The notes under the pieces: model-generated
The model's input: only the letters and a program-made list of their open reading frames with translations
What the model was told of the DNA's origin: nothing
Databases searched by the model: none
Shown here: one piece after another, positions 3,906 through 41,997 of the stretch
How positions within the stretch are numbered: the stretch's first letter is position 1
How the letters are laid out: each line of letters starts with the position of its first letter
Virus genome (UHGV): UHGV-1367765
Strand: one strand, 5' to 3'
Length of the DNA: 50,578 nt
Origin: a virus
Position numbers and translations under genes: made by a program

Positions 3906-4378
3906 ACCTCAATCTCTCTGACCGTTCCGCCTGCTTCTTTGAATTTTGCAATCAGGCTGTCAGCCTTATGCTCGAACTGACCATAACCAGCGCCCGGCAG
4001 TGAAGCCCAGATATTGCTGCAACGGTCAATTGCCTGACGAATATCACCGCGATCAATCATCGGTAAAGCGCCACGCTCCTTAATCTGCTGCAATGCCACA
4101 GCATCCTGGCTTTTCGGAGAGAAGTCTTTCAGAGCAAGCTGCTTACGGTAAGCATCCCACCAGCGTGAAAGAAGCTGATAACGTCCGGCGGCTGTTGATT
4201 TGAGTTTGGGGTTTAGCGTGACACGTTTGCGAGGGTGATCGGAGTAATCAGTGAACAGTTCACCACCAACAATAACATCATAACCGTGGTTACGTGTCGG
4301 TTGTCGCCCGTTATCCGTTCCTTCTGACCATGCCACCATATCCAGGAAAGCTTTACGCTGGGAATTTAGTGCCTGCAT
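3902..4378 (-). CDS. R: endolysin R (lambda-type lytic transglycosylase)
   Basis: 158 aa, near-identical over most of its length to lambda R ([19 protein letters not shown]...). Confidence 0.9.
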
Positions 4379-4381
4379 AAA

Positions 4382-4708
4382 TTACTCCTTCGAGCTACCA
4401 AATTTGTTACCGATTACTCGCATTGCAGCCCCACGAATAGCATCGACACCGATCAGCCCCACGCCACCACCAATGGCAACAGAAAGCGATTTAGGCCATC
4501 CGACATACTCAAGAGCGGATGCAAAGGTCAGCGTCAGAGCGCCACATAGCAAAATCTCGAGCGTTTTTCGCTTCCAGCCACCACCACCGCCAAAATAGGC
4601 GATGCGCAAACCAGCCATAACGATCGACATAATCACTGCACCCAGCGGTGTGTCTCCACGCCACCAGCTCTGGACCAAGTCCAGCCAGGTATTTGGGTTA
4701 TGAGGCAT
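4382..4708 (-). CDS. holin (non-lambda type; start taken at internal ATG)
   Basis: Directly upstream of the endolysin; hydrophobic Gly-rich segments; RBS before MPHNPNTW. Confidence 0.55.
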   Translation of the reverse strand: MPHNPNTWLDLVQSWWRGDTPLGAVIMSIVMAGLRIAYFGGGGGWKRKTLEILLCGALTLTFASALEYVGWPKSLSVAIGGGVGLIGVDAIRGAAMRVIGNKFGSSKE

Positions 4709-4751
4709 TTCGTCATCTCTCACCTCGCGATATTTGCGGGTGCTGTGTTGG

Positions 4752-4777
4752 AAATAAAAAGGCCACGCAACGTGGCC
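4752..4777 (-). terminator. Rho-independent terminator between the methyltransferase gene and the holin
   Basis: GGCCACG-caa-CGTGGCC hairpin followed by a T-run on the minus strand. Confidence 0.5.
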
Positions 4778-4784
4778 ACCAGAA

Positions 4785-5837
4785 TTATTTCCCCACCAGT
4801 TCACTTACCTCTTTCACCGTCTGATTAAACCGCTCTGACTCAAGTTCAACACCTAACGCCCGACGCCCCAGCGCCATTGCTGCTTTTATTGTGGAACCGG
4901 ATCCCATAAAGAAATCAGCAACCAGATCACCAGGTCGACTACTGGCATTGATTATTTGCCGGAGCATATCCGCCGGTTTCTCGCACGGATGTTTACCCGG
5001 GTAGAACTGAACGGGCTTATGCGTCCAGACATCGGTATAAGGCACGGAGACTGATACGGAGAAATAGCGCCGGAGAGATTTAAACTCATCCAGCAATTCA
5101 GAATATTTGCGATTCAGTGAATCATAAGATGCCACCAGCTGGTGGTGTGGTTGTTCCAGTTGTTGTTCCTGAAACTTCTCTGCCGCTATACGGGAAAACA
5201 GTGCCTGTAACTTCCGATAGTCAGCCTCATTCGGCAACTGCCACTGACTGGCACCAAACCAGTGGGAAACCATATTTTTCTTACCTGTGGCTTCGGCAAT
5301 TTGTTTTGCCGTTATACCCAGTTCGGCACGAGCATCCCTGAAATACGATATCAGCGGTGCCATTATGTGCTGTTTGAGTTCCCTTTCTTTTGCCGCATAG
5401 CCGTCACTTTTGCCGCGATATGGCCCCTGGTAATGTTCAGCAAACAGAACGCGCTCTGTGGCAGGAAAATATGCGCGCAGACTTTCTTTATTACACCCAT
5501 TCCAACGTCCGGACGGCTTCGCCCAGATGATATGGTTAAGCACGTTGAAACGTTCACGCATCATGATCTCAATATCAGATGCCAGGCGATGCCCACAGAA
5601 CAGGTAAAGGCTTCCGGCAGGTTTTAACACCCGCCAGAACTGGGCCAGACAGTGGTCCAGCCACTTAAGGTAATCTTCGTCCCCTTTCCACTGATTGTCC
5701 CAGCCGTTGGGTTTCACCTTGAAGTACGGCGGATCGGTAACAATCAGGTCAATGGAATCATCAGGCAGGGACTGAATAAAATGCAGGCAATCAGCGTTGA
5801 TTAAATCAACACTGTTTATTTTTACAGTATTTTTCAT
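4785..5837 (-). CDS. DNA methyltransferase (N6-adenine/N4-cytosine class, DPPY motif)
   Basis: DLIVTDPPYF near the N-terminus and FFMGSGST near the C-terminus; no adjacent restriction enzyme. Confidence 0.8.
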   Translation of the reverse strand: MKNTVKINSVDLINADCLHFIQSLPDDSIDLIVTDPPYFKVKPNGWDNQWKGDEDYLKWLDHCLAQFWRVLKPAGSLYLFCGHRLASDIEIMMRERFNVLNHIIWAKPSGRWNGCNKESLRAYFPATERVLFAEHYQGPYRGKSDGYAAKERELKQHIMAPLISYFRDARAELGITAKQIAEATGKKNMVSHWFGASQWQLPNEADYRKLQALFSRIAAEKFQEQQLEQPHHQLVASYDSLNRKYSELLDEFKSLRRYFSVSVSVPYTDVWTHKPVQFYPGKHPCEKPADMLRQIINASSRPGDLVADFFMGSGSTIKAAMALGRRALGVELESERFNQTVKEVSELVGK

Positions 5838-5971
5838 GGATCAGTAAGCGTAACTCTGGTAGGCTCACTCTGCTTTTGCGCTAAAGCAGTGGGCCGTGGT
5901 TCGCTTGTGACCAGTAAGCATGAGCGAATGGCTGGCAGGTGCTACCAACACCCACCAGCCGCCCATTTTCA

Positions 5972-5999
5972 CAAATTAAAAGCCCTTCATTGCTGAAGG
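5972..5999 (-). terminator. terminator-like hairpin overlapping the 3' end of the 72-aa gene
   Basis: CCTTCA-gcaa-TGAAGG stem followed by a T-rich tract on the minus strand. Confidence 0.35.
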
Positions 6000-6205
6000 C
6001 GTCTGTAACAGCCGAACTGGTAATCTGCCAGCCCCGCCATAACCAGCTGGGTCAGTATTAACTGACAGCGTTCGCGTGAAAGGTATGTGTTTTGTGCAAT
6101 CTCCCCGACTGTTGCCGGTTTGCCGTTTAATTCATTAAAAACAACTTTCGCCGTTTCTGTCATATCTAGCTGTTTTAGCATGTTTTTTACCTTCATGGTT
6201 AACAT
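5987..6205 (-). CDS. small hypothetical protein (72 aa), possible winged-helix regulator
   Basis: ATG start; helix-turn-helix-like segment TVGEIAQNTYLSRERCQLILTQL; upstream of the methyltransferase on the same strand. Confidence 0.4.
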   Translation of the reverse strand: MLTMKVKNMLKQLDMTETAKVVFNELNGKPATVGEIAQNTYLSRERCQLILTQLVMAGLADYQFGCYRRLQQ

Positions 6206-6303
6206 GACATACCAATAACTCTTGTCTAAAAAGCCAGCAAGATAAAAAGTCAGTATTCACGACCACCAGCGTGTTTACCGTACTGCACCAGGTTTACAGG
6301 TAC

Positions 6304-6330
6304 AAAAAAACCCGCTCGACGGCGGGTTTA
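6304..6330. terminator. A/T-flanked GC hairpin (bidirectional terminator-like)
   Basis: AAACCCGC-tcgacg-GCGGGTTT with an A-run on one side, in the AT-rich region upstream of nmpC. Confidence 0.3.
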
Positions 6331-6754
6331 AGCTGTGTGGCGAAGTAACCACTCTTAACAGCATAACCAATTTTTTACGTACGTAAACCTCTAAACAATA
6401 TTTGTGAGAATGATATCGAGTGTTCAAAACACCACCACAATCACATAAGGAAAAATAAACAAATAATCATTAAATAATTTCCGACGTTATTTTCAATGAG
6501 TTTAAATTAAAGAGATGATTTATAGAACACTTATTAATAACAACCTTTAATATAATTTAGCTACCAAATTTATTTTCTTTCAGAGAATAGTCATGTACAG
6601 CATGCAATAGAAAAAGTTCAGATAAAAATAGAGATCTAGATCACAATTTAAATAAGAATCTAAAACTTATATCTTGAATTAATCACATTGATTAGATGAA
6701 TATTTGTCGCGCAGGGCATCATTTTTTAATAAATGTTCAAAAAAAGGTCTCACG

Positions 6755-7852
6755 ATGAAAAAATTAACAGTGGCAATTTCTGCTGTAGCTGCATCAGTAC
6801 TGCTGGCGATGTCTGCTCAGGCAGCAGAGATTTATAATAAAGACAGTAACAAGCTGGATCTGTACGGAAAAGTTAATGCTAAGCACTACTTCTCCTCTAA
6901 CGAGGCAGATGATGGTGACACTACTTATGTTCGTCTGGGCTTCAAAGGCGAAACCCAAATCAACGATCAACTGACTGGTTTCGGTCAGTGGGAATACGAA
7001 TTCAAAGGCAACCGTGCTGAATCTCAGGGTTCTTCCAAAGATAAAACCCGTCTTGCCTTCGCTGGTCTGAAATTCGGTGACTACGGCTCCATCGATTATG
7101 GTCGTAACTACGGTGTAGCATACGACATCGGTGCGTGGACTGACGTACTGCCAGAATTCGGTGGTGATACCTGGACTCAAACCGACGTATTCATGACTCA
7201 GCGTGCAACTGGTGTTGCAACTTACCGTAATAACGACTTCTTTGGTCTGGTTGATGGCCTGAACTTTGCTGCTCAGTATCAGGGCAAAAATGACCGTAAC
7301 GATTTCGAGAACTACACCGAAGGTAACGGTGATGGCTTCGGTTTCTCTGCTACCTATGAATACGAAGGATTCGGCATTGGTGCGACCTATGCAAAATCTG
7401 ATCGTACCGACACTCAAGTCAATGCAGGGAAAGTTCTTCCTGAAGTATTTGCTTCCGGTAAAAATGCAGAAGTTTGGGCTGCAGGTCTGAAATATGACGC
7501 TAACAACATTTACCTGGCCACTACCTATTCTGAAACCCAGAATATGACGGTGTTTGCTGATCACTTCATTGCTAATAAAGCACAGAACTTCGAAGCTGTT
7601 GCACAATATCAGTTCGATTTCGGTCTGCGTCCGTCCGTTGCTTACCTGCATTCTAAAGGAAAAGACTTGGGTGTTTGGGGTGATCAGGACCTGGTTGAAT
7701 ATGTTGATGTAGGTGCAACTTATTACTTCAACAAAAACATGTCTACTTTCGTTGATTACAAAATCAACCTGCTTGACAAAAATGACTTCACTAAAGCACT
7801 CGGTGTAAGCACTGACAACATCGTTGCTGTAGGATTGGTTTACCAGTTCTAA
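6755..7852 (+). CDS. nmpC: outer-membrane porin, NmpC/Lc (OmpC/OmpF/PhoE family), apparently intact
   Basis: 365 aa with signal peptide [23 protein letters not shown] and porin motifs; near-identical to E. coli NmpC as recalled; sits between Q and the lysis genes on the opposite strand, as in DLP12. Confidence 0.9.
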
Positions 7853-7876
7853 TCTGGTTACTAAAAGATATGTTGC

Positions 7877-7893
7877 GGGAGGCGTTGCCTCCC
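7877..7893. terminator. hairpin just downstream of nmpC
   Basis: GGGAGGC-gtt-GCCTCCC stem-loop about 25 nt after the nmpC stop. Confidence 0.35.
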
Positions 7894-7987
7894 CAACATA
7901 TAAGTGGCTCCCTCAAGCCACTTCCTTTAGAAGCACTACCTTGCTTCTGACTATATAAACCTTCTGTTATATATTACCCTTTATTTT

Positions 7988-8015
7988 GGGGGCGTTGACA
8001 CGCCCCATTTTTAAT
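7988..8015 (+). terminator. Rho-independent terminator downstream of nmpC
   Basis: GGGGCG-ttgaca-CGCCCC followed by ATTTTTAATAAAAT. Confidence 0.5.
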
Positions 8016-8039
8016 AAAATTAAGTGAACAATTAGCGTA

Positions 8040-8423
8040 TCAATTGGACTTCGTAACAACGATATCCATCTCTAACCGGATATCTAATGCCATTAACATT
8101 CCTTCAATTATTCCCTCAGCCTTCTGTAACTTTTTCCCGATATAACCATCAGAGCAACAATGCTTGCTTGCAAGTGACATGAATGTCATACCGCCGACAT
8201 AATAATCCACTAGTAAATCATGCAAATCGCTGTTGTTCTTTTTCAGACGGGCCATACATCCGCAAACGATCATCGCGTCATCATCACAACATTGCGGACG
8301 GGATTTTACTTTTGAAGGAAGTACCCCCTTAAAACCAGCAGCAATGGACGACCAGGTCACATCCTCACGGTTATTAGCTGCCCATGCCCCCCAACGCTCA
8401 AGAACCATCTGAATATCACGCAT
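8040..8423 (-). CDS. late-gene antiterminator Q (phage 82 / QuuD type)
   Basis: [18 protein letters not shown]... matches the Q82 family; cysteine cluster; the listed TTG start is 5 codons upstream of this ATG. Confidence 0.8.
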
Positions 8424-8440
8424 CAACTTTCTCCACAAAA

Positions 8441-9436
8441 TCAGGCCAGCACGCCAGTTGCCAGCGCACGATCGATAAAACGAAATATCAACTCCAGCTG
8501 GGAGCCATACTTCTCTTCAAATGCCGCGGTATCCGCATGCAGCTCGTCGTGATGCTTTCTGCACAAAGGCAATACAAAGAGGTCATGCGCTTTTGTACCC
8601 ATTCCGCCCTGACCGTGGCCTATCAGGTGGTGGGGATCATCAGCAGGCTTTCCACAACATGCACACGGCTGTGTCTTAACCCAGCGCGTGTACTTTTCGT
8701 TAACCCAGCGGCGACGTTTTGGGCGTAACATAAAAGACTCCGGCGACTCCGGATCCACTTTCAGCGCCAGCACCTTTTTCACTTTATCCTGGATGATGCT
8801 GGTGGCAGGAACCGAAGGAACAAGGTCACTTTCCCGGGTGACAGACGGCACAACAGGCTTCGGTAATCTCAGTGCCTTACGGGCTGCACTTTCCGGCAAG
8901 GCTCCCGCCAGGTCATTACGAACCAGCCACCAGCACAGTTCCGGCATTGTCACAACGTGACTGTCATCAAAACCGAGATCCCGACGCACAACAGACAACA
9001 CCCAGCGGGCACAGTTATCCGTTGCCATTGATTCCAGCCGTTCCGTGAACTGATCGCGCAGCTGGTTATCGCAGTGCCAGCACAGACGGATTGCACCCGG
9101 CGCGTGTCGCATTGTGGTCATGTTCTCGCTGTGCCAGTCGGAATGAGGCCACTGGCAGCCTTTTTCACGAAGTAACCAGCTTTCAAGACATTCCACGCCA
9201 CCAGCACGACGGATCACTGCCTCATTGCGGAACACGGCCCGAACGGCAGGATCATCCGCCAGCGGTTGTGATGCCGCCGGAACAGCACCACTGGCGAAAG
9301 ATGAATAACGTTCCGGCTCAGGCTCCAGCAGGACACGCCCCTGCATAAACAGGGGCATCAGCTCTGAACCTGGTCTGAACAATACGATCCCCATACGCGG
9401 GGCAATTTCAGGGGTCAGTAGTGCTCTCACGGTCAC
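8441..9436 (-). CDS. prophage protein with Cys/His-rich zinc-binding C-terminus (DUF968-like)
   Basis: CACCGKP...[10 protein letters not shown]...CRKHHDELH motifs; GTG start; family from memory. Confidence 0.45.
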
Positions 9437-9437
9437 C

Positions 9438-10235
9438 TCAATGAACGATATCGAGCAGCTTTAACAGCTCAGGGAATCGGGATTCGAAGAAATGCGGCTG
9501 CGTCTCGCGCGGATTTGCGGGACTGGTGATGTTCTTGCCGAACATGCAGCCTTTCGCTGTCAGCGACCAGAATTTTTTGATGTTGTTAATCGTGGTACGG
9601 CTGTATCGTTCGCGCTGCTCGACGATCCCCAGCTTCACCATCTGGTGATATGCCTGATTAGCCGTCAGGCGTATACCATACTGTTTCAGCAGTGCACTCA
9701 GTGACAGTGTCGGGCGACTTGAGCCATCGTGTGCATCAGCAGGAGCATCAATGGCATAGCGCGGTGCCAGATTCGGTAAGCCAACAGCCTCCTGGAGTTT
9801 CTGACAGGCTCCAAGCACTGAAGAGTTAGACAGGTTTAATTCCCGGCGCATAAAGTCCAGCAGAATCACACCAGCCTGCATCTTGTCAGCAGCCTGTCCG
9901 GATAATTTTTCCGGTGCGCTGGTTACCATATCGAAAGTACGGATCACCTTCAGATGGAATGACGGGCTGATCCACATTGCATAGGCATACACCAGTTCTT
10001 TGCAGACATACGTCCCCTGGTTATTTCCGCCACGAATAACGTTAACTGGCTCTATATTGACCGAGTTGCAAATCTGCAACTCGCTTATTAAACGTTCAGT
10101 TTGCTCATTGCGGAGCCAGAATGCAGGCTTATGCTTATCCAGAGAACCGGCAGCCCTGTGCAGATCGTTCAGGCTGTAACGCCCATAAGCATCACGACGA
10201 ACTTCAATACCATCAATGACCATCAGATTATTCAT
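9438..10235 (-). CDS. KilA-N domain protein
   Basis: N-terminus MNNLMVIDGIEVRRDAYGRYSLNDLHRAAG is KilA-N-like; GAGGAG RBS before this internal ATG. Confidence 0.6.
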   Translation of the reverse strand: MNNLMVIDGIEVRRDAYGRYSLNDLHRAAGSLDKHKPAFWLRNEQTERLISELQICNSVNIEPVNVIRGGNNQGTYVCKELVYAYAMWISPSFHLKVIRTFDMVTSAPEKLSGQAADKMQAGVILLDFMRRELNLSNSSVLGACQKLQEAVGLPNLAPRYAIDAPADAHDGSSRPTLSLSALLKQYGIRLTANQAYHQMVKLGIVEQRERYSRTTINNIKKFWSLTAKGCMFGKNITSPANPRETQPHFFESRFPELLKLLDIVH

Positions 10236-10254
10236 ACTTCGTTTCTCCTCTTGA

Positions 10255-10644
10255 TCAGGCGGCTGCACCCGCCGTTTTCTCGTACTTACTGATAGTGATC
10301 TCGATCTTCCCTCCCGGGATAACCGGTCCCCACTCAACCAGCATTCTTTTCACCTGACTGTCGTCTTCCCACACACCCGCGTGGGTCAGGGCGTCAAACA
10401 GCGCCTTGTTATAGTTGTCCAGATCGCGGATCCGGTTATCCGGAGGAAACAACACGATCTCCACTGAAGCAGGTGCCGACGTTGGTTTCGGCAGGCGACG
10501 TAACTGCTCAACTATTGCTGCGCACGCCGCGCTCTGGAATTTGCGCCCCGCTGCGCTTATCAGACTCTTACCAGCAAACGCCCCTTTGTTGGGGTGTCGC
10601 CAGTACGTGTTCACGCTGGGCGGGAAAGGCAAGATCAGCTTCAT
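10255..10644 (-). CDS. rusA: Holliday-junction resolvase RusA
   Basis: PPSVNTYW and RDLDNYNKALFDAL motifs of the RusA family. Confidence 0.8.
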   Translation of the reverse strand: MKLILPFPPSVNTYWRHPNKGAFAGKSLISAAGRKFQSAACAAIVEQLRRLPKPTSAPASVEIVLFPPDNRIRDLDNYNKALFDALTHAGVWEDDSQVKRMLVEWGPVIPGGKIEITISKYEKTAGAAA

Positions 10645-38258: not shown

Positions 38259-38334
38259 TGGTGCTGGTTAACGGACTTGAACCGCTACCCATTCGCTTAC
38301 AAGGCGACCGCTCTACCATTGGAGCTAAACCAGC
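38259..38334 (-). tRNA. tRNA-Thr (anticodon UGU inferred)
   Basis: Hand-folded cloverleaf: 7-bp acceptor stem, D-stem GCTC/GAGC, anticodon loop CTTGTAA, T-loop TTCAAGT, 3' ACCA. Confidence 0.55.
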
Positions 38335-38339
38335 ATGTT

Positions 38340-38414
38340 TGGCGGGACAGCGTGGACTCGAACCACGATAAGAAGGTTAACAGCCTTCCGTAATGACCTT
38401 TATACGACTGACCC
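38340..38414 (-). tRNA. tRNA-like gene, anticodon GUU (Asn) inferred; possibly degenerate
   Basis: Cloverleaf with anticodon loop CTGTTAA, T-arm CGTGG-TTCGAGT-CCACG, 3' GCCA, but a U-U mismatch in the acceptor stem and a 3-bp D-stem. Confidence 0.4.
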
Positions 38415-39538: not shown

Positions 39539-39813
39539 TGGACAAACACCCTCCCATTGTTAACCAATTTTTTAAGGGTAAGCACAATGGCCCGATCCAT
39601 TTCAGCCCTTCGCTCTTCCCTGCTCATATCTCTCCCATTATCAATTCTTGAATGACAATCAACACATAGCGCAGCAGTAAGGCAATCATCTACTTTAATC
39701 CCAACCCCCTTCCCTTCATTTCTGTGAGCGGCCTGAACTCCGTATCTTCCGCAAAGAACGCAAAATTCAATATCCCTGACTGCCTGAAGCCATTTTTTGC
39801 TTCTAAACATCAA
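39535..39813 (-). CDS. DUF1364 (YbcO-like) putative nuclease
   Basis: Cys/His pattern CVLCGRY...AAHRN...CVDCHSRIDNG typical of YbcO-like proteins. Confidence 0.5.
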   Translation of the reverse strand: MMFRSKKWLQAVRDIEFCVLCGRYGVQAAHRNEGKGVGIKVDDCLTAALCVDCHSRIDNGRDMSREERRAEMDRAIVLTLKKLVNNGRVFVQ

Positions 39814-40312
39814 TCCCCTCCAAAAAACGTCGGTACGCTGATTTGTTTTTTATGTTGCACACTGTCTGCGCACAAACACCAAATTCTTTGGCTATATCTC
39901 TGTATTTGCCTTTTGATTTATATATTGATTTCACTTGTTCTGGCGTTAGTTTGCAGAAGTGATGATTAAACCCATGAACAAGCAATCCGGAATCAAATCC
40001 ATGTTTCGCATTTTCTGTTCGCGTTACCCACTCAAGATTTTCAACTTTATTATTAAGTTTATTTCCATCCTTGTGATTAACTTCCGGTTTGCCATCTGGG
40101 TTATCAATAAATACTTCTGCAACAATTCTGTGAACCATTTTATATGATGGTCTTTTCCCGCCACCTGGATACAGACCGACAAATGCATATCCTCCTGGTT
40201 TAATGCCATGAGATAATTTTTTTGATTTACGGCATGAAATGATGTCTCCATTTTCAGTTACTTTATATATACCCTCAAAGCCGGGGATATCTTTTTCTTT
40301 AACATCACTCAT
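39803..40312 (-). CDS. HNH homing-endonuclease-like protein (NUMOD4 + HNH + C-terminal HTH)
   Basis: IPGFEGIYKVTENGDI (NUMOD4-like), VNHKDGNKLNNKVENLEWVTRTEN (HNH); AT-rich island. Confidence 0.65.
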   Translation of the reverse strand: MSDVKEKDIPGFEGIYKVTENGDIISCRKSKKLSHGIKPGGYAFVGLYPGGGKRPSYKMVHRIVAEVFIDNPDGKPEVNHKDGNKLNNKVENLEWVTRTENAKHGFDSGLLVHGFNHHFCKLTPEQVKSIYKSKGKYRDIAKEFGVCAQTVCNIKNKSAYRRFLEGIDV

Positions 40313-40863: not shown

Positions 40864-41036
40864 TTCCTCGCACGATGTCTTAGCCACCGGATATCCCACA
40901 GGTGAGCCGTGTAGTTGAAGGTTTTTACGTCAGATTCTTTTGGGATTGGCTTGCGTTTATTTCTGGAGCGTTTCGTTGGAAGGTATTTGCAGTTTTCGCA
41001 GATGATGTCGGTGATACTTCGTCGCTGTCGCCTCAT
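40860..41036 (-). CDS. ninE: NinE
   Basis: [23 protein letters not shown]...[18 protein letters not shown] matches lambda NinE; AGGAGG RBS. Confidence 0.75.
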
Positions 41037-41560
41037 GCCGCCCTCCTGACGCCCTGCCCGATCGCCATCAATGCCGCTTTGGATACGGTAGTAAACATCC
41101 GTCGAGGACTGATGAGCGGGCGCCAAATCAGCAGCATTGAGCCTTTGCTGTTTCCCTTCTTCTCCAGCCCCGTCGATGGTTCGATAAAATTAATCCGTCC
41201 ATCAGTGATGATGCGAACTTCGTCAACGCTCTCCAGAGCCTTGCTGAACCATCCGACTGACATATCCTCTGGCACAAGCATAACTACCGTCTGTCGCTGT
41301 TGTATGCACTGCTCAGCGGCTTTTTCCACCCACGGCCTGATATTGCTGTACGGTTGGTTATTCCAGATTGCACCGTGGCTTACCCACTCAGAATTGAGCG
41401 CGTCGTCGGCCTCAGTTAGCCAGTGAGCACACAGAGCATTTTTGTCGCTCGCTGCCGAATCCAGCCAGAATCCAAACTCAATATCCAGTGCATCAAAAAG
41501 CCAAAGCGGCGTTTGCCAGCAGTCCTTGTCGTGTGCTGGCGTATTTGATTTGATAGTCAT
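41033..41560 (-). CDS. phage DNA N6-adenine methyltransferase (Dam-type)
   Basis: [12 protein letters not shown]...NQPYSN motif pattern of lambdoid-phage Dam methylases. Confidence 0.7.
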
Positions 41561-41997
41561 GCAGCCCGATCTCCCCATCTCGCTTTCCACTCCAGAGCCA
41601 GTCTCGCTTCGTCTGACCACTTAACGCCACGCTCTGTACCGAATGCCTGTATAAGCTCTAATAGCTCCGCAAATTCGCTTACACGCATCCTGCTGGTTGA
41701 CTGGCCTATTACCACAAAGCCATTCCCGGCAAGGTTAGGAACAACATCCTGCTGCTTTAATGCTGCGGTAAACACACACTTCCAGCTTTCTGCATCCAGC
41801 CAGCGACCATGCCATTCAACCTGACGAGAGACGTCACCTAAGCAGGCCCATAGCTTCCTGTTTTGGTCTAAGCTGCGGTTGCGTTCCTGAATGGTTACTA
41901 CGATTGGTTTGGTTGGGTCTGGAAGGATTTGCTGTACTGCGTGAATAGCGTTTTGCTGATGTGCTGGAGATCGAATTTCAAAGGTTAGTTTTTTCAT
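41557..41997 (-). CDS. ninB: recombination protein NinB
   Basis: 146 aa, MKKLTFEIRSPAHQQNAIHAVQQILPDPTKPIVVTIQERNRSLDQN matches lambda NinB. Confidence 0.85.
   Translation of the reverse strand: MKKLTFEIRSPAHQQNAIHAVQQILPDPTKPIVVTIQERNRSLDQNRKLWACLGDVSRQVEWHGRWLDAESWKCVFTAALKQQDVVPNLAGNGFVVIGQSTSRMRVSEFAELLELIQAFGTERGVKWSDEARLALEWKARWGDRAA

Follow-up and report, generated by a model that had tools for sequence, protein, structure and literature searches.

What is a DNA methyltransferase with no restriction endonuclease beside it doing between the antiterminator gene and the lysis genes of a prophage? This question is raised by the virus genome UHGV-1367765, a stretch of 50,578 nucleotides (nt) that we analysed as a whole and refer to as the window, in which a module on the minus strand (positions 4785-6205) consists of a small gene followed by a methyltransferase gene. 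The original prediction described this pair as an orphan methylase bearing a DPPY motif and a helix-turn-helix-like gene of 72 amino acids (aa), inserted between antiterminator gene Q and the lysis genes, with an anti-restriction or epigenetic role. We find that the observation is real, that this reading was essentially right and that the system has been described before, the enzyme being a close member of a characterised family that occupies its customary position within its customary cassette. Taken as a whole, the segment is probably best explained as a late-operon cassette of a lambdoid prophage, encoding a non-specific adenine methylase whose expression would depend on Q and whose function would be anti-restriction.

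The methylase open reading frame (ORF) spans 350 aa, as had been predicted, and proved on inspection to be uninterrupted and free of frameshifts. Its product scores 146.6 bits against the Pfam profile PF01555 (N6_N4_Mtase; cut-off 26.7), residues 29-341 matching profile positions 1-220 of 221. The DPPY motif lies at residues 35-38 and an FMGSG motif at residue 310; motif IV thus precedes motif I with the recognition domain in between, which is the order of the beta class. The protein aligns collinearly and over its full length with M.EcoGII, which together with M.EcoGI was described from Escherichia coli O104:H4 C227-11 (Murray et al. 2018, PMC5778455), 283 of 349 residues (81%) being identical. 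The M.EcoGII sequence was taken from Supplementary Table S1 of the SUPREM paper as a machine-read copy with a few obvious errors, and as the only two alignment gaps fall at such errors, the identity figures are slightly low. Identity amounts to 119 of 134 residues in the N-terminal Rossmann half, 70 of 91 in the C-terminal half and 60 of 78 (77%) in the four-helix target recognition domain (spanning residues 160-237). The window protein is 89% identical to the reconstructed ancestor Anc291 and, without gaps, 81% identical to the methylase of phage 1720a-02, an enzyme named as very similar to M.EcoGII (PMC5778455). Relatives agree with the window at 88% of first and second codon positions (in the most conserved domain) versus 52% of third positions, and the gene is therefore under purifying selection. 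By these comparisons the window enzyme is a member of the M.EcoGII family and not a new enzyme.

M.EcoGII methylates adenine in any sequence context (PMC5778455). According to the SUPREM paper, M.EcoGII, Anc291 and the deeper ancestor Anc284/SUPREM methylate both DNA and RNA, with no discernible motif on RNA. As all three are non-specific, the property spans the clade holding the window protein, and we infer from the identity to M.EcoGII and Anc291 that this protein would also methylate adenine non-specifically. Most beta-class enzymes recognise a defined motif, and the window protein could instead be a sequence-specific orphan methyltransferase of that kind. Specificity is not readable from the sequence, 23% of the recognition domain differs from M.EcoGII, and a PDB sequence search with the methylase retrieved distant beta-class enzymes alone, aligned to the two Rossmann halves; the closest of these (M.RsrI, M.MboIIA and CcrM) are site-specific, and the search gave no match for the target recognition domain and no closer solved structure. 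We nevertheless consider sequence specificity quite unlikely, given 81% and 89% identity to two non-specific enzymes, the non-specificity of a third and more distant clade member, and scores far below the cut-offs of the NCBIfam equivalogs for YhdJ (NF008572; 109.8 versus 292) and CcrM (NF050803; 67.4 versus 830). The absence of an attributable methylation motif, originally put forward as grounds for refutation, is an invalid test for this family, because an enzyme that lacks specificity and is not expressed in the lysogen would leave no attributable motif in a methylome of the strain and yet could be functional.

The surroundings of the gene are shared with many other phages. Region 4300-6700 of the window is 97.5% identical to phage SfV over 85% of its length, covering orf47, orf48, S and R; phages mEp460, cdtI, Ayreon and others are 95-99% identical in parts, and phiP27 and several Stx2 phages about 80%. 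A search of 5,426 complete E. coli genomes found some match to this query in 4,368 and nearly all of it in 119. The annotated order in SfV is Q, terminator, orf47, orf48, terminator, S; that of the Stx2 phage 1720a-02 is Q, small gene, methylase, stx2A; and the same two genes follow Q in mEp460. Terminator T1 (6328) is the exact point at which homology to SfV, to mEp460 and to the viral contig L003 sets in, that to 1720a-02 starting at 6360; beyond lies the AT-rich sequence of a divergently oriented porin gene, so that the left boundary of the cassette at T1 is sharp. Inside this boundary, the spacer at 6182-6299 is nearly invariant in an alignment of the window, SfV, L003 and 1720a-02.

A diversity scan restricted to one genome per species yielded 80 loci with methylases 61-93% identical to that of the window, which span Enterobacteriaceae, Erwiniaceae and Morganellaceae. 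A homologue of the small gene lies directly upstream on the same strand in 58 of the 76 loci with enough upstream sequence, while in the other 18 the upstream segment is swapped for unrelated genes. Among viral contigs containing the small gene and enough sequence downstream of it, the methylase comes next in 61 of 65. Sequence comparison thus shows no insertion peculiar to this prophage but a cassette of wide occurrence, found after Q in SfV, cdtI, mEp460, phiP27 and Stx2 phages; the predicted position between porin and holin, and between Q and the lysis genes, was borne out by profile matches, whereas the idea of a local insertion was not. The absence of a restriction endonuclease was likewise correctly noted: the genes around the methylase were identified as the small gene, Q, porin, holin, endolysin, Rz, Bor, a DUF968 gene and a KilA-N gene, and the locus contains no adjacent cognate endonuclease gene of the kind that defines a Type II restriction-modification system.

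Three terminator-like hairpins punctuate the cassette. The strong T1 (AAACCCGCCGTCGAGCGGGTTT and a T-run at 6329-6308, minus strand) lies upstream of the small gene. The other two had been pointed out in the original prediction and were recovered by our scan: the weaker T2 (CCTTCAGCAATGAAGG then GCTTTTAATT at 5999-5984, minus strand) crosses the stop codon of the small gene, and T3 (GGCCACGTTGCGTGGCC then TTTTTATTT at 4777-4761, minus strand) separates methylase and holin. The consensus scan found 8 terminator-like sites in 4300-8500 versus 3.8 expected. The T2 stem is kept across genera by differing pairs (CCUU/AAGG, CCUC/GGGG, CUGC/GCAG, UCGC/GCGG, UUGC/GCAA), and the SfV annotation places putative rho-independent terminators at the sites equivalent to T1, just after Q, and T3. 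A scan of 4300-8200 for sigma-70 promoter-like sites found none on the strand of the module, and the late promoter was not located, no minus-strand site after Q or before T1 qualifying; the weak candidate TTTACG-16-TATGCT at about 6361-6388 scores 8 of 12. The roughly 50 nt before T1 (within 6302-6382, minus strand) are common to the segment of 1720a-02 just downstream of Q, and this region gives sub-threshold Rfam matches to the Trp leader (E 0.08) and isrK (E 2). The segment before T1 may represent a short terminated transcript from the late promoter.

Three terminators, no promoter-like site on the coding strand and, in relatives, a place immediately behind Q all indicate that the methylase would be read exclusively by polymerase antiterminated by Q, in one unit with the lysis genes; Q presumably permits read-through of T1 to T3. 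The flanking terminators, the missing promoter-like site and the absence of a Shine-Dalgarno sequence before the methylase start also suggest that the gene is silent in the lysogen. This picture fits what is reported for the characterised enzymes: M.EcoGII and M.EcoGI showed no expression in the lysogen, and constitutive expression of M.EcoGII was deleterious (PMC5778455). Non-specific activity, silence in the lysogen and toxicity are here carried over from the literature on M.EcoGII and the reconstructed ancestors. The same evidence bears on the possibility that the enzyme acts on the host, as an epigenetic regulator produced in the lysogen to alter host gene expression. Some prophage methyltransferases do change host methylomes, and an intact gene within an apparently degraded prophage could have been kept by selection because the host profits from it. 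However, the related enzymes are silent in the lysogen and harm the cell when expressed constitutively, and the window gene sits between terminators with neither a promoter-like site on its strand nor a Shine-Dalgarno sequence. We therefore regard such a regulator as very unlikely; of the two roles originally suggested, anti-restriction is probable and a lasting epigenetic role in the lysogen is not.

Family membership, an intact gene with all its motifs, an anatomy conserved across phages and genera and the lack of a partner nuclease are observed directly in the sequences compared here. Upon these, the anti-restriction cassette may be pictured to work as follows. It would stand first in the late transcription unit of the lambdoid prophage, in the order T1, 64-aa gene, T2, leader, methylase, T3, holin, endolysin, Rz. 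In the lysogen the methylase would stay silent, bracketed by terminators and with no promoter of its own detected. After induction, Q-modified RNA polymerase would pass the terminators, and the methylase would be made along with the lysis proteins. By moving methyl groups from S-adenosylmethionine (SAM) to the N6 position of adenine with little or no sequence specificity, it would modify replicating or packaged phage DNA, and in the next host this methylated DNA would be shielded from many restriction enzymes sensitive to adenine methylation. Protection of progeny DNA from restriction is also the purpose proposed by the authors of M.EcoGII, whose family is very large among E. coli prophages (PMC5778455).

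Several points weigh against this account. Support for the activity of the window protein comes from sequence comparison, and 18 of the 78 residues of its recognition domain differ from those of M.EcoGII. We found no report of heavy adenine methylation in virion DNA of SfV, mEp460 or similar phages, and DNA rich in N6-methyladenine would become a target for methylation-dependent nucleases. Our scan did not locate the late promoter, and Q and the module are separated by a porin gene on the opposite strand, Q dependence being argued from synteny only. Finally, the prophage looks degraded beyond the lysis genes, and in this strain the cassette may be idle and never serve a viable phage. The morphogenesis region by the lysis genes (287-2692) looks fragmentary: within 2.4 kb it has an ORF that fuses an HNH domain with part of a head-closure protein, and in addition a neck protein, an incomplete portal-like ORF and fragments of tail-fibre genes, and from this region the prophage is judged to be probably defective. 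That the methylase gene is itself a decaying, functionless remnant in a cryptic prophage, as this fragmentary region and the description of M.EcoGII's own host element as a cryptic prophage by its authors (PMC5778455) could suggest, is most unlikely in view of a full-length ORF collinear with M.EcoGII, both catalytic motifs intact, a substitution pattern of purifying selection, and the occurrence of copies at 99% identity or without any difference in many viral contigs as well as in functional phages, SfV and mEp460 among them.

If the enzyme is as harmful as its relatives, the non-coding sequence at its 5' end deserves attention. The gap between the small gene and the methylase measures 149 nt, of which about 140 nt form a conserved leader ending in CUGAUC(C/U)AUG at the start codon. 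The GATC directly before the methylase ATG (5838-5846, minus strand), a Dam site, is kept in nearly all relatives, including Morganellaceae. Across 47 relatives, mean identity to the window is 83% for the leader, 73% for the whole methylase coding sequence and 52% for its third codon positions. A covariance model built on an alignment of 51 distinct leaders matched in 52 of 84 sources, once at each locus and each time immediately before the methylase start; the 675 kb covered contained no other match. In 120 viral contigs there are 121 occurrences of an exact 21-mer of the leader, with the methylase about 130 nt downstream in 114 cases; of the remainder, three are cut short by contig ends and four keep just the first hairpin before another gene. 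These four (in contigs L180, L218, L244 and L263) retain the P2 hairpin alone, followed by a different gene of about 240 aa and a tRNA-like sequence in place of the methylase, and are recombinant replacements of the cassette. The leader is kept in loci that have no small gene, about a quarter of all loci, and Photorhabdus and Xenorhabdus have a shorter leader with a P2-like hairpin. As a coding sequence the leader was rejected, since loop-length differences that are not multiples of three break every frame.

Four helices, P1 to P4, describe the predicted fold. RNAalifold on the raw MAFFT alignment returned a thin consensus of 16 pairs, loop-length differences shifting the columns, and a hand-drawn structure, the covariance model and re-alignment were used in its place; the alignment is thus fitted to that structure, which biases the following counts towards it, and the sequences are related by descent. 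In the model-fitted alignment, P1-P4 pairing holds in 95.3% of cells versus 31-43% with slid partners, and ten pairs change on both sides, a number reached in 0 of 500 shuffles. Five of these two-sided changes fall in P2 (e.g., GACUGUAAAAGUG/CACCUUUACAGUC and GACAGUGAGGAUG/CAUCCCCGCUGUC in Proteus) and three in P3, one position of which occurs as C-G, A-U and U-A; P1 shows a single compensatory event (G-C to A-U in Mixta), and P4 barely varies and is uninformative on pairing. The minimum free energy is -58.7 kcal/mol, with a z-score of -2.84 for the sense strand versus -1.94 for the antisense. The methylase AUG is unpaired in the predicted fold, and no simple mechanism of start masking is evident. 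Two further helices were considered. P4ext (GGCCCAC/GUGAGCC), which competes with P1, has a conserved C-A mismatch and is only 86% paired, and P5 (GUGAGC/GCUUAC) appears in the single-sequence fold but by eye is not kept in Morganellaceae; an RNA switch based on these alternatives is not claimed.

Rfam 15 was searched with the whole window at gathering thresholds and with 4700-6500 at E up to 10, and neither search returned a match on the leader (5838-5986); the sub-threshold matches to Trp/Phe leaders and isrK are confined to the T1 terminator region. A literature search on the leader sequence retrieved no paper, and papers on small RNAs of enterohaemorrhagic E. coli prophages (Tree 2014; the Pas sRNA preprint of 2026) make no mention of the methylase or of a leader element. 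The leader thus seems to be undescribed, and covariation argues for helices P2 and P3.

Conservation of the leader might alternatively reflect signals in the DNA, such as Chi or an operator palindrome for the winged-helix-like small protein, and not RNA structure. In favour of this view, the 5' arm of P2 contains a Chi octamer and varies less than the 3' arm, another Chi is found in the conserved spacer that precedes the small gene, the window shows a 14-fold excess of Chi, and a palindromic operator would likewise show symmetric changes. Yet Chi covers just 8 of the roughly 140 conserved bases, and the Proteus leaders without Chi still keep P2 through the compensatory changes given above. The three Watson-Crick pair types at one P3 position and the G-U pairs, which fit the sense strand only, also speak for RNA. 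Moreover, one and the same leader sequence accompanies two alleles of the small protein with only about 50% identity, and the leader persists where the small gene is absent. DNA-level signals are accordingly a doubtful explanation, though one to be kept in mind. In the window at large, the Chi octamer GCTGGTGG occurs 24 times versus 1.7 expected from shuffles, with 20 of 24 on the minus, late-gene strand; all lie between 4.1 and 33.6 kb (4157-33574), the final 17 kb being free of them. The conserved non-coding parts of the module contain two (5952-5959 and 6263-6270).

The small gene upstream of the leader was predicted to encode 72 aa, and an ORF of that length is present. Its third ATG, at 6181, is preceded at 8 nt by GAAGG, and homologues and public annotations are mostly 63-64 aa (orf47 of SfV has 195 nt); the gene therefore most likely starts at 6181 and encodes 64 aa. 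Profile searches, proposed earlier as a way of classifying the protein, assign it to phrog_331, a family of unknown function (E 1.9e-34). Its match to TrmB (PF01978) reaches 17.2 bits (E 0.0047), below the gathering score of 25.6, and the NCBIfam profiles gave no match. All 282 homologues are enterobacterial, most being named 'TrmB family transcriptional regulator' by NCBI and a few annotated with PF17782 (DprA_WH). An AlphaFold2 model based on a 28-sequence alignment averages 65.5 in its predicted local distance difference test score and has a predicted template modelling score of 0.41, too poor for a fold search. The 'TrmB family' name is weakly founded, given the sub-threshold match, the lack of an NCBIfam match and the low-confidence model; the protein is probably a winged-helix nucleic-acid-binding protein.

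Of 80 viral contigs in which the methylase matches that of the window at 98.6% identity or more, most have a second allele of this gene, only about 50% identical. The two alleles (window 5987-6181; L003 3623-3850 and most of contigs L002-L081) adjoin methylases that are 99-100% identical, which places a mosaic joint between the two genes. Both alleles share an N-terminal MLKQ.DMTETA and a helix-3 segment, RCQLILTQLV(M/L)AGLA, and the retention of this helix fits a nucleic-acid target shared by both. The small partner gene seems to be undescribed.

Small gene and leader together recall the com-mom operon of phage Mu and the Mu-like prophages, in which a small com-like gene precedes a non-specific adenine methyltransferase that replaces mom and is silent in vivo (Hin1523, Hia5 and Nma1821; Drozdz et al. 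2012, PMC3299994). Traits that are shared, or would be, are a small gene directly upstream of a late, harmful and broadly acting adenine-modifying enzyme, tight control with undetectable activity in the lysogen, and control elements located at the enzyme gene's 5' end. Com, however, is a zinc-finger translational activator with four cysteines in two CxxC-like pairs, whereas in the winged-helix-like window protein just two cysteines are conserved, C39 and C58 in the numbering of the 64-aa form, and a CxxC pair is lacking. Unlike that of Mu, the window leader has no predicted hairpin masking the start codon, and the host phage is lambdoid. Binding of the leader by the small protein in the manner of Com is a candidate mechanism; a conserved structured leader is present, and it also occurs in the loci without the small gene. 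It is conceivable, although rather unlikely, that the 64-aa protein and the leader form an undescribed post-transcriptional gate on a toxic non-specific methylase, a functional analogue of com-mom whose components are unrelated to those of Mu. The folded leader would then be bound by the small protein, by the methylase or by a metabolite (SAM or S-adenosylhomocysteine), and the bound leader would decide methylase translation late in infection.

Among known systems, the window methylase shares with M.EcoGII its beta-class architecture, near-equal length (350 versus 349 aa), collinearity and prophage location, and the relative in 1720a-02 has the same upstream small gene and the same leader. It differs in about 19% of residues and lies nearer to Anc291, its activity being a prediction from these similarities. 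The succession of terminator, small gene, methylase, terminator and holin is that of SfV orf47-orf48 and of the corresponding pairs in cdtI, mEp460, Ayreon, phiP27 and Stx2 phages. The module of SfV comes immediately after Q, whereas in the window a porin gene on the other strand intervenes, and most close relatives of the window methylase carry the second small-gene allele. A second, different methylase gene had been predicted at 41033-41560, and this gene (minus strand) indeed matches PF05869 (Dam, E 6.8e-63). It too encodes an orphan phage N6-adenine methyltransferase, of an unrelated family with another motif order, and adjoins NinB in an early/nin region.

The remaining features of the locus are listed in Table 1. 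After the methylase, the minus strand continues with holin, endolysin and Rz/Rz1, followed by Bor on the plus strand. The listed holin ORF of 140 aa overlaps the methylase stop, and its PF05106 and TIGR01594 matches both start at residue 33; the long form is an artefact and the ATG at 4708 probably the true start, which leaves a spacer of 76 nt with T3 between methylase and holin. On the other side, a very AT-rich region of 270 nt (6430-6700) precedes the porin gene, through which late transcription would run antisense. Just upstream of Q lie genes for a DUF968 protein with a weak HNHc nuclease match (8441-9436, minus strand) and a KilA-N protein (9438-10337, minus strand), an arrangement also seen in mEp460 and 1720a-02. 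The second phage-like region contains tRNA-Thr(TGT) and tRNA-Asn(GTT) genes and a homing-endonuclease-like gene with NUMOD4 and HNH_3 domains, besides the Dam-type methylase and NinB.

Table 1. Features of the methylase cassette and its surroundings in UHGV-1367765.
Feature	Position	Strand	Evidence or remark
M.EcoGII-family beta-class N6-adenine DNA methyltransferase, 350 aa (by sequence)	4785..5837	-	PF01555, E 1.3e-42
Structured leader of methylase mRNA (predicted)	5838..5980	-	51-leader alignment, covariance model
Leader helix P1	5961-5965 with 5890-5894	-	
Leader helix P2	5949-5960 with 5930-5941	-	5' arm holds Chi octamer 5952-5959
Leader helix P3	5919-5928 with 5900-5909	-	
Leader helix P4	5883-5888 with 5871-5876	-	
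Weak terminator-like hairpin T2	5975..5999	-	terminator scan; spans stop codon of small gene
Small winged-helix-like gene, probably 64 aa	5987..6181 (longest ORF to 6205, 72 aa)	-	phrog_331
Untranslated conserved spacer, T1 to small gene	6182..6299	-	Chi octamer at 6263-6270
Terminator T1	6300..6329	-	terminator scan; left boundary of conserved module
Intrinsic terminator T3, methylase/holin gap	4753..4777	-	terminator scan
Lambda-family holin, probable ATG at 4708	4382..4708	-	PF05106, E 4.5e-25; TIGR01594, 120 bits versus cut-off 55
OmpC-family porin gene	6704..7852	+	PF00267, E 1.9e-156; between Q and module
Antiterminator Q	8040..8438	-	PF06530 Phage_antitermQ, E 6e-53
Features of second phage-like region	38259-38414, 39803-40312, 41033-41997	-	

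For annotation the result is routine, the fitting label being adenine methyltransferase of the M.EcoGII family, probably non-specific, in a prophage late operon. It gives no reason to speak of a new epigenetic system, and methylome data from lysogens are unlikely to reveal the gene. M.EcoGII itself is in wide use as a tool, in MadID, chromatin footprinting and RNA methylation, and in the literature searched we found no description of how phages restrain such a harmful enzyme. The linked small gene and the leader merit modest interest in this respect: a leader conserved across three families of Enterobacterales and a linked winged-helix gene offer two concrete, testable candidates for the control of a toxic enzyme.

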